This document shows positions 50,621 through 57,033 of a stretch of 64,000 nucleotides of DNA, piece after piece. The stretch covers positions 12,090,001 to 12,154,000 of the forward strand of contig OZ024751.1 of NCBI GenBank assembly GCA_964016885.1, given 5' to 3'. Numbering within the stretch: position 1 is the first letter of the stretch; every line of letters begins with the position of its first letter. A model generated the notes under the pieces. The model was given only the letters and a program-made list of their open reading frames with translations. It ran no database searches and was not told where the DNA came from. The position numbers and the translations under genes were made by a program. Source of the DNA: Eledone cirrhosa. Its lineage: Eukaryota.

Positions 50621-51036
50621 GCTGAATACAATAAATATAATCTGAGGATTTCGAATATTAATAATAATATTCGATTCGTTTGTAATTTGTAATTATGCAA
50701 AGAGCCTCTTTTTAAAGCCTTGACAGTAGATCTGTAATGTGCAGATCTTACTGATCAGCCGGTCTGCTAATATGCAAATCAGGCCGATCAGTCACTGTAT
50801 GTTTTAGAAAATATCATATATTTTCACTAGCTCTGACAGTTGGCAGGTGAACAGTGAACTGCACTGATGAAGGGTATTACCCAGAAACATTAGTGTCTGT
50901 AGCTCTGTTTACATTTCAACACAAGAGCAAGAAAGGGGGGCTCATTCTACTGACATGACTTTAAAAATGAGGCTTGTTTGCATGATTGCAATCGAATCAA
51001 ATATTATTATTTATATTTGAAAAACTCAGATTACAT
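50621..51036 (+). mobile_element. Fold-back HHR element family F, copy A (HHR 50846-50914)
   Basis: ~95-bp inverted arms around GAACTGCA-CTGATGA-aGGGT att ACCCa-GAAA-CATTAGTG-TC-TGTAGCTC. Confidence 0.82.
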
Positions 51037-51430
51037 ATATATATATATATATATATATATATATATATATAGTGAAAGAGTGAAGAATAACATGGTCAAC
51101 GGTACAAAAAAGGGTTTTATTTACAGTATTAACAATTGTTTCATTGGTTAAGTTGTCTTAAAATTGCTAATTACTTGAAGTTGTATCACTCAATTTTAAA
51201 TACGATGTATGCTTAACCAAATCATTAGAAAAAAACTGTTTAGAATTATACACAGCGTTTGCAAATTCAAATTAAAACATCATTTATAAAGAAAGAAAAC
51301 AAAGCCGTACGCTGAAACTATGCACAATACGGAGTATTCACAACCTCTAACTAGATTACCTATAACGATAACTTGTTATCTCTTATATATATATATATAT
51401 ATATATAGATAGATAGATAGATATAGATAG

Positions 51431-51902
51431 GTAAATATACACGGGTGTGTATGATTGTGTATAGAAGATTATATTAATAAGAGGAATTCCAACTTTGTCT
51501 GATTTACTCGTTTTATTTACAATCCTTTAAAATATATAATGGTATTATAATGAAATAGTATGATAGAATATTAAATTCTAAGTGTTAATTGAACAAGTAC
51601 TTTCATGCTTTCGCAATCTTCAGGTTCATAATATGTGGTGACAGTCGAGTTTGCAATTTTCAACTGTCAATAAAAATAACAATTGAAAATAACAATTAAA
51701 AATAACAGTTGAAAATTGCAAACTCGACTGTCACCACATATTATGAACCTGAAGATTGCGAAAGCATGAAAGTACTTGTTCAATTAACACTTAGAATTTA
51801 ATATTCTATCATACTATTTCATTATAATACCATTATATATTTTAAAGGATTGTAAATAAAACGAGTAAATCAGACAAAGTTGGAATTCCTCTTATTAATA
51901 TA
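51431..51902. mobile_element. Perfect ~198-bp inverted repeat with an HHR in each arm (family 5)
   Basis: Arms 51470-51667 and 51705-51902, a 37-bp spacer, and a short one-sided extension at 51431-51469. Confidence 0.88.
51744..51782 (+). ncRNA. Minimal type I hammerhead ribozyme (family 5)
   Basis: TGAAC-CTGAAGA-tTGC gaaa GCAt-GAAA-GTAC-TT-GTTCA. An identical mirror copy lies at 51590-51628 on the minus strand. Confidence 0.85.
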
Positions 51903-52349
51903 TATATATATATAGTTCAAGGAAACAACAAACAAAGGTAGAAAAATTCTCATTAGTTTCACGATTTATATTGGGAAGAGGAAGTTCGACGTGTCGGGCT
52001 TCAGCGCTTCCTGAGGAGTACAAATAGAGACCGGATCACCGTGGAGAAACAGAAAGAATGTACAGTAAAGACACTATGGCTAACTCCTGAGTTGTGTTAA
52101 TCTTCAGTGTCACCTGTGCAGTCACAATATTATCAGATCGCCATGTCTAAATAACCTGTGAGAAAAAGGCTGAAAAGTCCAGATTAAAGACACCCAAATC
52201 TTCTATTGGAACTCCTGTACATCTGTGTGCTTCCTGCCAAATTTAACACTTCCATTCCTCTTCCGATTATCATTAGCTTAGAATTTACAACTCCGCCTAC
52301 ACTGTAGCGGCTTCGAAGATATAACCAATATATATATATATATATATTC

Positions 52350-52970
52350 GAACACATGTATACCTGTATCGGTGTTCATCCCTCTCATATATTCAATTGT
52401 ATTACACAGCTCGGAAAGATTCCCTTCCTTCGGCTATTTAATTGTAAAAGACTATTTTGAGTTTCTAACTCAATATGTGATATGCTTGGTTCCATATGTA
52501 GCGCTAACTTTAGTCCCATAAAACCGGCTGCTATTTTTAGCGGCACGAGTATGAAACGCGCTAGGCGCTGCAGCATGTGCTTTTAAATCAACACATAGTC
52601 CAGTCTTCTTAGATCTTTTGACGTGAAAGGTACGAATTTCCCGGATACCCGCAGAAGAGCACAGGAATGGTGGCTTTCACTTAATAACTCTTGCGAAACA
52701 GATTTAGATCTGTCCGGGTATCAAACGGTAGTTGCCCGATATTGTTATTTTTATTGATTTATTATTTTAAATCGAGACAGGTAAACCATATTGTTTTAAA
52801 TTAGTATTTTTTCAACCTAGCTAACTTGGTCATTTGCAATTGGAACTCATGTATACTTGTATCGGTGTTCATCTCTCTCATATATTCAATTGTATTGCAC
52901 GGCTCGTGCAATACAATTGAATATATTTAATTGTAAAAGACTATTTTGAGTTTCTAACTCAATATATGAT
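52350..52970 (+). mobile_element. Retrozyme-like element: 493-bp unit plus ~125-bp terminal redundancy
   Basis: Direct repeats at 52350-52481 and 52843-52970, an internal full HHR fold, no credible ORF, and (TA)n flanks. Confidence 0.7.
52641..52728 (+). ncRNA. Full type I hammerhead ribozyme with one core substitution (family 6)
   Basis: CCG GATACCCG-CAGAAGA-GCA...TGC-GAAA-CAGAT ttag ATCTG-TC-CGGGTATC aaa CGG. Confidence 0.8.
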
Positions 52971-52990
52971 AATTATATATATATATATAT

Positions 52991-53611
52991 AAATGTACTC
53001 GGAGTTTTTCGAATATTAATAATTGTTTCTACTATTGGCACAAGGCCAGCAATTACCCAGTACATTACTCGTACTTTATTTTATCGACCCCGTAAAGTTA
53101 ACCATATTAATAATTGTTTCTACTTTAGGCACAAGGCCAGCAATTACCCAGTGCATTACTGGTACTTTATTTTATCTACTCGTAAGGATGAAAGGCAAAG
53201 TCAACCTCGGCGGGAACTGAACTCAGATCGTAAAGAGACGTAACTATGCTGCCAATCCACCGCCTTAACCATATTAATAATAACATTCGATTCGTTTGCA
53301 ACTATGCAAACAAGCCTCAATTTTATAGCCATGTCAATAGAATGTGTATTTTTGAAAATAGCATATGTTCACTAGCAATGACAATTTGGCAGGTGAACAG
53401 TGAGCTGTACTGATGAAGGGTGATATCAAGAAACATCGTCTGCAGTTCTGTTCACATGCCAACACAAGGGAAATAATGAAGAGTTGATTCTACTGACATG
53501 GCTATAAAATTGAGGCTTGTTTGCATAATTGCAAACGAATCGAATGTTATTATTAATATTCGAAAAACTCAGATTACATTTATTGTATTCAGCAATGTAG
53601 AGCGAACATTT
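52991..53611 (+). mobile_element. Family F copy B (HHR 53386-53462), left arm interrupted by a SINE
   Basis: GAGCTGTA-CTGATGA-...-GAAA-CATCG-TC-TGCAGTTC. The arms are homologous to copies A and C. Confidence 0.82.
53023..53270 (-). mobile_element. S1 SINE with partially duplicated 3' end
   Basis: Flanked by ATATTAATAAT at 53013-53023 and 53271-53281. Confidence 0.85.
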
Positions 53612-55274: not shown

Positions 55275-55405
55275 ATATGTGGCTTCGTGGGTAGGCTCCT
55301 TGTCGTAAGGTCATGAGTTTCATTCCCAGATATGGTGGTGCTTCGTGTTCTTGAGCAAGACTTTCTATTTCAAGCTTTTCAATCCACTCAGCTGGAGAAA
55401 AATTC
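55275..55405 (+). mobile_element. Degenerate S2 SINE
   Basis: GTGTTCTTGAGCAAGAC...TCCACTCAGCTG resembles 37890-37945. Confidence 0.6.
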
Positions 55406-55883
55406 ATTTTTATTAGTGTTATGCAAAAAGAGTTTACCACATGGCTAGTCATGACAGAAGACAGGCTCTTTCCAAGTCTTTATACATATATACACTCACA
55501 AACACACACACACACACACACACTCACACACACTAACGCTCACACACATACATACACACACATACAACACACATATACAATGCATTCTCAGCAGATCCAG
55601 AGTGTGTCATACAGGAGAATACGTAATCTTGATGAGGGGCAAACACTCCGAAACAACAATATTGTCGATTGCTTACTCTCATCTATCGCTGGAACAAAAG
55701 CACCACGTTGTTCATTTGTCACGTGGTGTTTTATGAGGCGCTTAAGTTTCCACCCCGTTAAGAGCGACAACAATTATACAACTATAAATATATATATATA
55801 TATATATATATATATATATATATATATATATATATATATATACAAAGGGTAAAACGATCAAATTTTAGTTTAGAGCTTTTATT

Positions 55884-55930
55884 TGCTGACAATTGTTTCT
55901 TCCAGAGGGACGTCTGGTATCATCGGAGCA
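55884..55930 (-). ncRNA. Minimal hammerhead ribozyme with U4C substitution (family 7)
   Basis: TGCT-CCGATGA-(CCAGA/TCTGG)-GAAA-CAATTG-TC-AGCA, followed by AATAAA. Confidence 0.72.
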
Positions 55931-56534
55931 TAAGGAATGTCGAAACATGTAACTAAAACCCTAGTCATTTAGAACATTTAGGGTACATAATTGTTATTAG
56001 TGTCAAAGGCATCATGTGGAGAGTCAGGAGTTAAAAAGATGTTCTGTTTGAAAGAACAGAATTACAGGCAGCACTGGTTGCAAGTGTAATAGGTATAAGT
56101 AAAAGACCCAAGCAAAGAAATCACAGGCAAAAAAAAAACAAAAAACACAGGCAAAAAAGGTTATAAGCAAGGAACATTGGTGTACAATGCAGGTGTCAAT
56201 ATAGACAATAATGCATGTATGAGGAAAGAGTTATCAGGTATCTCGGCTCTGTAAAACACTTGAAAATTTGCATTGAGCCTTTTGTCATACCGGTAACCGG
56301 CTAGTACTTAGTAGTAACCTGCATATTTATAGTTATATCAAACATATAGAAATAGAAATATTCTTCTTCTTATTATTATTATATATATATATATATATAT
56401 ATATATATATATATATATATATATATATATTTCCAAGAAATGTCATCATGAATGGACCTGTTATTTTTATCTAAAGACATTTTTTTCCAATTTCAACCCG
56501 CCCGTACCCGCAATTTATCTTATTTCTCATTCTT

Positions 56535-56570
56535 TCTTCTGATGAAGGATTAGCGTCTGAAACGTTAAGA
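56535..56570 (+). ncRNA. Minimal hammerhead ribozyme (family 8)
   Basis: TCTT-CTGATGA-AGGATTAGCGTCT-GAAA-CG-TT-AAGA with palindromic AACGTT. Confidence 0.65.
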
Positions 56571-56697
56571 CCCTCTTCCTTCTATTTCAAGCGTTAAACA
56601 CACACACACACACACACACACACACACACACACACACACACACACACACACACTTATATATATATATATATATATATATATATATATATATATAAAG

Positions 56698-57033
56698 AAA
56701 ATGTTCGCTCTACATGGCTGAATATAATAAATGTAATCTGAGTTTTTCGAATATTAATAATAACATTCGATTCGTTTGCAATTATACAAACACGCCTCAA
56801 GTTTATAGTAATGTCAGTAATGTGTTGGCATGTGAACAGAACTGCAGACACTGTACTGATGAAGGGTGATACCCAGAGACATTAGCGTCTGCAGTTCTGT
56901 TCACATGCCAACAAAAGAGCAAGAATGAAGGATTCATTCTACTGACATTGCTATAAAATTGGGGATTGTTTGTATAATTGCAAACGAATCGAATGTTATT
57001 ATTAATATTCGAAAAACTCAGATTACATTTATT
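56698..57033 (+). mobile_element. Family F copy C (HHR core 56856-56889, GAAA changed to GAGA)
   Basis: Almost entirely self-complementary, with (TA)n flanks. Confidence 0.82.

Follow-up and report, generated by a model that had tools for sequence, protein, structure and literature searches.

The 64,000-nt stretch of Eledone cirrhosa DNA considered here (GenBank assembly GCA_964016885.1, contig OZ024751.1, positions 12,090,001 to 12,154,000 of the forward strand), which we call the window, contains three fold-back copies, A, B, and C, each of which is a truncated two-armed insertion of a non-coding repeat of 437 nt. The repeat unit is arranged head to tail and carries a type I hammerhead ribozyme motif, and the explanation that we prefer, and regard as probable, is that it is a non-long-terminal-repeat (non-LTR) retrozyme copied in trans into (TA)n by the reverse transcriptase (RT)-endonuclease of a Penelope-like element (PLE). 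Judged by its sequence, the family belongs to the animal non-LTR retrozymes and is likely copied by a PLE enzyme; that class, riding on PLEs, is already in print, and the family described here is a new member of it.

The 437-nt unit and its genome-wide family

Unit positions are numbered on one real copy, at locus L027, from 1 to 437, and on this scale the hammerhead core CTGATGA lies at 225 and the cut is predicted to fall after 258. Loci were taken from the 3.0-Gb genome as the first 100 places of three 21-mer patterns on contig C1, plus further sets; the first 30 loci, chosen by their likeness to copy B, are left out of the outer-end, inner-end, junction, pairing, and ungapped-extension counts and are retained in the analyses of the hammerhead (184 copies), monomer folds, divergence, alleles and editing, one-armed flanks, and long arms. 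Copy number declines from 3′ to 5′: exact 21-mers at unit positions 376, 273, 243, and 5 have 4,641, 2,760, 2,500, and 430 matches in the genome (counts of a single motif depend on its mutability too), and the reversed controls have none each. The unit is closed on itself: 28 of 99 arms continue beyond position 1 and enter a preceding unit at its position 437. Six monomers measured from cut to cut are 432-444 nt long with a GC fraction of 0.37-0.39 (a seventh spacing, at locus L004, is 634 nt), and their circular folds give z scores of -7.5 to -11 against 25 dinucleotide shuffles each, values to which internal sub-repeats contribute. At least two consecutive hammerheads are present at some loci, and one arm of 1,203 nt holds three. 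Comparison of 111 one-armed copies revealed no common sequence upstream of their 5′ end, the exceptions being two copies whose 400-nt flanks are nearly identical and a single TA-repeat match. Nothing therefore points to a longer coding parent; nor does the longest antisense frame tested in the unit have a Pfam match. The median divergence of copies from the family majority base is 4.7%, and the differences among them are mostly decay after insertion.

Three further observations concern the family at large. Unit positions 46-154 hold an internal sub-repeat of ~30 nt that expands and contracts between copies and is present many times over in L002 and L069. Three locus pairs (L045/L046, L066/L067, and L216/L217) have identical junctions and are probably segmental duplications of existing insertions. 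Two ideas, that arm length is capped at ~650 nt or that the RNA starts at a fixed point close to position 190, were given up when further long arms extended past this limit.

Copies A, B, and C

The three related fold-backs lie where a preliminary description of the stretch, made from its letters, had placed them, with inverted arms that are 77-95% complementary and with the (TA)n flanks that it reported. The left (inverted) arm of copy A, at 50615-50730 on the minus strand, runs from unit position 416 to 307, with its outer end inside the tail; the right arm, at 50735-51040 on the plus strand and ~10% off the family majority base, runs from 97 to 400 (a short end, as defined below) and then into (TA)n. 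The left arm of copy B (52983-53344, minus strand) runs from 405, again a short end, to 304, and it is split by a later insertion of 258 nt at 53013-53270 (plus strand) that the preliminary description had missed: two partial copies of another repeat, foreign to the element and inserted at unit position 366 (TAATAAT), for which SINE-like (after short interspersed nuclear elements) is a label only. The right arm of B (53345-53616, plus strand) runs from 158 to 433 or beyond, a long end with its tail at 53584-53616, and is followed by (TA)n. In copy C, the left arm (56694-56850, minus strand) runs from 433, a long end with tail, to 255, with unit 285-308 deleted at ~56820, and the right arm (56851-57037, plus strand) runs from 220 to 405, a short end. 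The extension previously seen on one side of each copy is borne out, on the right in B, on the left in C, and in part on the left in A. The SINE-like repeat is very abundant; it is inserted at the same TAATAAT site in 61 distinct arms of the family and occurs elsewhere in the window at 16012-15875, 30384-30718, 34641-34852, 41526-41664, and 50295-50549.

Outer ends, head-to-head pairs, and target

The outer ends of the insertions are fixed and the inner ends are variable. Among the outer ends of 100 arms, 52 are short (395-408), 45 are long (420-445), and 3 lie elsewhere, and a TA run follows within 30 nt of the outer end in 83 of 97 arms. The 264 insertions comprise 132 simple head-to-head pairs, 102 one-armed copies, and 30 complex cases. 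A short end is paired with a long one in 90 of the 96 pairs that could be classified (the other 36 had an unclassifiable end), the two ends being ~33 nt apart. Microhomology at the junctions comes to 1.49 nt, against 0.74 nt in 2,000 permutations (47 gap-free junctions among 86), and symmetric junctions are mildly in excess (15 of 81 versus 8.1 expected, p=0.011, with the three window copies and two near-identical loci dropped). Rare alleles are shared between the arms of one insertion at 32 of 898 sites, four times the 0.9% of control pairs, and so both arms tend to share a single source. Each insertion creates its fold-back afresh, and the arms vary.

This short/long arrangement is the layout described for PLEs, namely, a one-sided tail, an inverted truncated copy, and (TA)n. 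Endonuclease-bearing PLEs insert with an inverted truncated copy, a tail of 30-40 bp at one end, and (TA)n (PMC8557442, Craig et al. 2021; PMC8969392), and for an anole PLE, both strands are cut and extended and two internal RT starts bound the tail (PMC11167929, Frangieh et al. 2024). Because of the one-sided tail, the inverted arm, the (TA)n target, and the 3′-to-5′ gradient of copies, we regard the unit as a non-coding retrotransposed element with PLE-type ends. In this respect, the mobile, non-coding, and non-autonomous element of the preliminary description stands, but its portrayal as a hairpin resembling a miniature inverted-repeat transposable element (MITE) with a fixed inversion point does not.

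In the mechanism that we propose, a PLE enzyme would cut both strands in a TA run, and the two 3′-OH ends would prime reverse transcription at internal sites of the RNA, one of them at the short site (~400-405) and the other at the long site (~420-437). Both cDNAs would run toward the 5′ end of the RNA, stop at variable points, and be joined head to head, often over 1-4 nt of microhomology; where one side only was extended or kept, a one-armed copy would result. The template would be longer than one unit or else closed, whether as a covalent circle, a nicked circle held by the 21-bp stem I of the hammerhead, or an uncut tandem transcript. A minority of templates would likely start at the ribozyme cut, which would account for an edge of inner ends at 257-259.

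The hammerhead motif

The type I hammerhead in each unit is predicted from its anatomy to be a self-cutting motif. Its core is intact in 138 of 184 full-length family copies, and all three stems pair. Stem I comes to ~21 pairs, interrupted by one small bulge and by a G-A mismatch, and so the unusually long stem I of the preliminary description is upheld across the family copies (~21 bp); stem II has four pairs on an A-A mismatch, and stem III has three pairs and is self-complementary. PLE hammerheads with a self-complementary stem III can cleave as dimers. The ribozyme assignment rests on this motif anatomy because no Rfam hammerhead model matched, either over the window at the gathering threshold or over 50200-58000 at E<=5, where the matches obtained are microsatellite hairpins.

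In the window itself, a type I hammerhead had been ascribed to every copy, which holds for A, where the core and stem III are intact, but not for B and C, which are damaged. The motif of copy A (50840-50922, plus strand) has CTGATGA at 50864, GAAA at 50884, a predicted cut after 50897, and a mismatched stem I. That of copy B (53386-53462, plus strand) has its core at 53410 and its predicted cut after 53440, with stem III short of 3 nt by deletion and stem II broken by mismatch. The first bases 3′ of these cuts, 50898 in A and 53441 in B, are as originally noted. In copy C, CTGATGA stands at 56856 and, by the CTGATGA...GAAA...GTC layout, the first base beyond the predicted cut is 56890; GAGAC replaces GAAAC, and the 5′ strand of stem I is an inverted copy of its 3′ strand. 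Differences in stem I were also said to preserve pairing, and this was not confirmed: the three differing pairs are two one-sided changes and one A-C mismatch, in A.

Several further observations join the Rfam result in weighing against our explanation. In the fold of lowest predicted energy, the core CUGAUG is paired with stem III, and by the same kind of prediction, the hammerhead fold is costlier by 6.2 kcal/mol for a family copy and by 8.5-19.9 kcal/mol for the copies in the window. Not one two-sided compensatory change was found in the 184 copies, and the common stem variants keep pairing one-sidedly, two of them probably through CpG decay. A trace of A>G editing on the sense strand was sought as well, and no excess was found (A>G/T>C ratio of 0.97), so that an RNA stage has left no editing mark.

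Inner ends at the predicted cut

Inner ends pile up at the predicted cut, with 23 at 257-261, where 5.4 are expected, and 2 at 252-256. On the first lap around the unit, 24 of 97 arms stop within 257-272 (5.7 expected), and 5 of 73 stop in the next 16 nt. Ungapped extension from the stem I motif recovers the same edge in 283 copies, although ~4 of the 29 rows that fall at 257-262 are small indels. Of the 50 second-lap arms, 21 end at 257-273, whether their start is short or long; 7 of 36 stop in the last three bases, 257-259 (p=0.01 versus 260-273), and beyond these, at 231-256, the figure is 2 of 29. Stops at the cut are commoner among second-lap arms of the set chosen only for spanning the unit junction (12 of 20) than among first-lap arms (26 of 99, p=0.007); with the pooled second-lap value of 21 of 50, p=0.06. 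The edge suggests templates that begin at the ribozyme cut, and we put the chance that it was caused by ribozyme cleavage in the living animal at slightly better than even. A mixture of cut, nicked-circular, and uncut templates would fit best. A freely rolling covalent circle fits poorly, because arms reaching two or more full units number only 2 of 509 and because the share of arms that get beyond position 190 falls from 55 of 99 on the first lap to 13 of 50 on the second.

The same data contain points that run against cleavage as the source of the edge. Most first-lap arms, 73 of 97, pass the predicted cut. The excess of ends extends across the full 257-281 stretch, where the 3′ strand of stem I lies as well, and has an equal peak at 271-275. 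Moreover, there is a second edge at 158-162 (14 ends versus 3.9 expected), and no ribozyme is located there. These observations lead to the strongest alternative, in which the element and its PLE-type insertion are the same as we propose and the ribozyme is a passenger: the templates would be linear transcripts that come uncut from partial tandem loci, and stalling of the RT in the 21-bp stem I would produce the pile-up. The majority of arms that cross the cut, the spread of ends with its peak at the stem entry, the rarity of arms of two or more units, and a core predicted to be sequestered in the lowest-energy fold are all as this alternative would have them. So are results from other systems, since the anole PLE mainly used uncut RNA as its substrate, with no reads ending at the cut (PMC11167929), and eight of nine Xenopus retrozyme dimers were uncleaved in vitro (10.64898/2026.07.22.740005, a preprint). 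However, stalling in a long stem does not sit well with a stopping hazard that climbs at the last three bases and drops immediately past them, and the long hairpins at 46-154 produce no comparable plateau in the top windows. In addition, copies templated without tandem regeneration would be expected to shorten in each generation. On balance, the passenger ribozyme deserves to be taken seriously, at a chance appreciably below even.

A more specific version of our preferred explanation can be put forward, tentatively and with more doubt than confidence. In this version, the PLE enzyme would prime two times on a nicked circle, formed by a cleaved monomer that the 21-bp stem I keeps closed; the nick would usually be crossed on the first lap, stops there would become commoner on the second, and the insertions would constitute a fossil record of cleavage and template shape in vivo. 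If true, a PLE-type hammerhead would have a direct part in retrotransposition, unlike in the in vitro work on the anole PLE, where none of the ends falls at the cut (PMC11167929), whereas the genomic ends here pile up at it. The papers cited leave open the way in which PLE inverted ends are formed, the role of the hammerhead, and the means by which retrozymes move. In its thousands of copies, the family offers short natural products that have two fixed start sites and an abrupt edge where the cut is predicted, and a direct test of those questions would become possible by combining its 437-nt RNA with an intact PLE protein encoded in this genome.

Possible source of the enzyme and the search for a partner

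We infer that the 437-nt unit is mobilized by a PLE enzyme. The genome has 10,597 GIY-YIG candidates (PF01541), open reading frames (ORFs) combining RT and GIY-YIG are present, and one PLE family has many open frames of 821 aa. A GIY-YIG endonuclease fragment of that family, which is very young and abundant, is found in the window at 2288-2707 on the minus strand; besides its 821-aa frames, the family has 57,151 first-look candidates and both tandem and inverted copies, and it is a ready source of intact enzyme. Beside copy A, at 51430-51902, there is also a perfect 198-bp fold-back with its long end on the left and its short end on the right. This fold-back represents, in inverted form, the 3′ end of an autonomous PLE that combines RT and GIY-YIG and has a CxxxxCxxC linker; it is 98% identical to the region 3′ of the ORF in four PLE loci (L164, L165, L168, and L176) and has a minimal hammerhead motif on both arms (51623 and 51749).

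An RT+GIY-YIG partner sharing the 3′ end of the unit, as the preliminary description envisaged, was sought in the 30 best PF01541 loci, 20 loci picked for long ORFs, and 30 loci of the abundant family found with window 2288-2707. The 3′ regions of these 80 PLE loci, a small part of the more than 10,000 candidates, show no likeness to the unit, which counts against our explanation. Two of the 80 hold family copies 1.2-1.6 kb from the ORF, and these look like separate insertions. In another alternative, the unit would be a pseudo-LTR belonging to some autonomous PLE, and its copies would be plain truncated stubs of that element. Their layout matches that of PLE stubs exactly, the neighbor at 51430-51902 among them, the search covered only those 80 loci, and of 57 retrozyme families in Xenopus, 24 have a match to PLE ends or to one other repeat (10.64898/2026.07.22.740005). 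But arms that cross position 1 enter the unit's own 3′ end, the 111 flanks have no common upstream sequence, and the antisense frame tested has no Pfam match. The preliminary description had held that random arm lengths, with most copies continuing into a PLE ORF, would mean ordinary truncation; arm lengths are indeed random, but copies continuing into a PLE ORF were not seen in the sample. We therefore consider the pseudo-LTR origin improbable. A related parent PLE may exist, and it would refine our explanation and not replace it.

The inversion point

In the preliminary description, the element was modeled as MITE-like, with an inversion point that is fixed and with a self-cleaving hairpin RNA as its mobile form. 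Two of the three window copies do end at 304-307, where the left arms of A and B (307 and 304) meet the CAGTAGA motif; the left arm of C, after its 24-nt deletion at that motif, continues to the GTC site and ends at 255, and the right arms of the three copies start at three different positions (97, 158, and 220). In the family, arms ending in the CAGTAGA region (300-312) make up 8 of 100 position-ordered arms, and the corresponding test gives 8 of 77 versus 5.0 expected (p=0.13). A window of 304-318, chosen post hoc, gives 13 of 83 versus 5.9 (p=0.006, in the unbiased 100-arm set) and adjoins a small hairpin at ~292-310. For 451 pooled arms, the inversion-point window has 17 ends versus 18.7 expected, although pooling under-counts ends 3′ of the anchors. 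At most, then, there is a weak preference for inner ends beside the small hairpin. Against the model are also the one-armed insertions (102 of 264) and the sheer spread of inner ends, 125 of 162 being distinct in the 81 two-armed insertions outside the window; that spread by itself refutes it, and we regard the model as very improbable. The family lacks the fixed, symmetric terminal inverted repeats and uniform length that define a MITE. Inside (TA)n, a target duplication would not be readable. Judged from the copies themselves, a Tc1/mariner-type DNA-transposon MITE with a TA target duplication, suggested by inverted termini in a TA context, can be given next to no credence, since the termini are asymmetric (short with long in 90 of 96), the arms range from ~25 to 1,200 nt, copies may be one-armed or tandem, and abundance drops from 3′ to 5′.

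Relation to known elements

The closest counterparts of the unit are the metazoan non-LTR retrozymes (Cervera and de la Pena 2020, PMC7229834; Li, Clavereau and Pollet 2026, 10.64898/2026.07.22.740005), for which both papers propose PLEs as the mobilizing partner. Like our unit, these are non-coding, head-to-tail repeats of 150-450 bp with GC below 45%, a type I hammerhead per unit, and a structured monomer; they have thousands of copies, mostly monomers or less, with PLEs alongside. The inverted two-armed layout and the two fixed outer ends mapped here are not described in the parts of those papers that were examined, and a term search of PMC7229834 gave no match for "inverted," "octopus," or "cephalopod." In contrast to the published retrozymes, long arrays are rare in this family, which is known here from genomic sequence and for which no parent PLE was found among the 80 loci. 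No published description of this family, or of copies ending at a retrozyme cut, was found in a search that did not extend to Repbase, Dfam, or subscription papers, and repeat databases or the supplements of 10.64898/2026.07.22.740005 may list the 437-nt family.

PLE insertions with an inverted pseudo-LTR (PMC8557442, PMC11167929) resemble the family in 5′ truncation, partial tandems, an adjacent inverted truncated copy, a tail at one end only, a (TA)n or AT-rich target, and a hammerhead 140-175 nt upstream of the RT starts; they differ in that our unit has no ORF and is closed on itself. Non-autonomous Chlamys PLEs such as MRC1 (PMC8557442) are likewise non-coding and PLE-mobilized, with pseudo-LTRs and head-to-tail insertions. 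Chlamys PLEs, however, generally resemble their autonomous partner at the 3′ end, whereas no partner match was found here in 80 PLE loci, and the clade mostly lacks the canonical hammerheads whose motif is present in our unit. The Hydra-1_Obim hammerhead in the supplement of PMC8557442 differs by eye from that of the family, and three motifs of the unit have no match in that supplement, where line breaks or cut runs could hide one.

Other features of the window

The window is rich in microsatellites. Type I hammerhead motifs of other families occur at 5172, 22081, and 31244 on the plus strand and at 26310 on the minus strand, and the 22081 type, which recurs at a spacing of ~480-510 nt in locus L171, is probably another retrozyme. 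Hammerhead-like core strands that were missed by a strict scan can be discerned by eye at ~55620-55680, 55890-55940 (minus strand), 56540-56575, and 57840-57895, in TA-flanked segments around copies B and C. A further TA-flanked segment, at 52340-52975, has internal direct repeats (in the regions 52359-52400/52850-52900 and at 52431-52480/52921-52970) and a short palindrome at 52876-52929. At 35556-35719 on the plus strand, a U2 small nuclear RNA-like sequence (78 bits) with degenerate 5′ and 3′ ends is probably a pseudogene. Finally, at 43506-49653 and 62001-64000, there are a long C/A-rich tandem array with a 45-bp period, which could be read as a Thr-rich protein, and a stretch of opposite skew at the window end.

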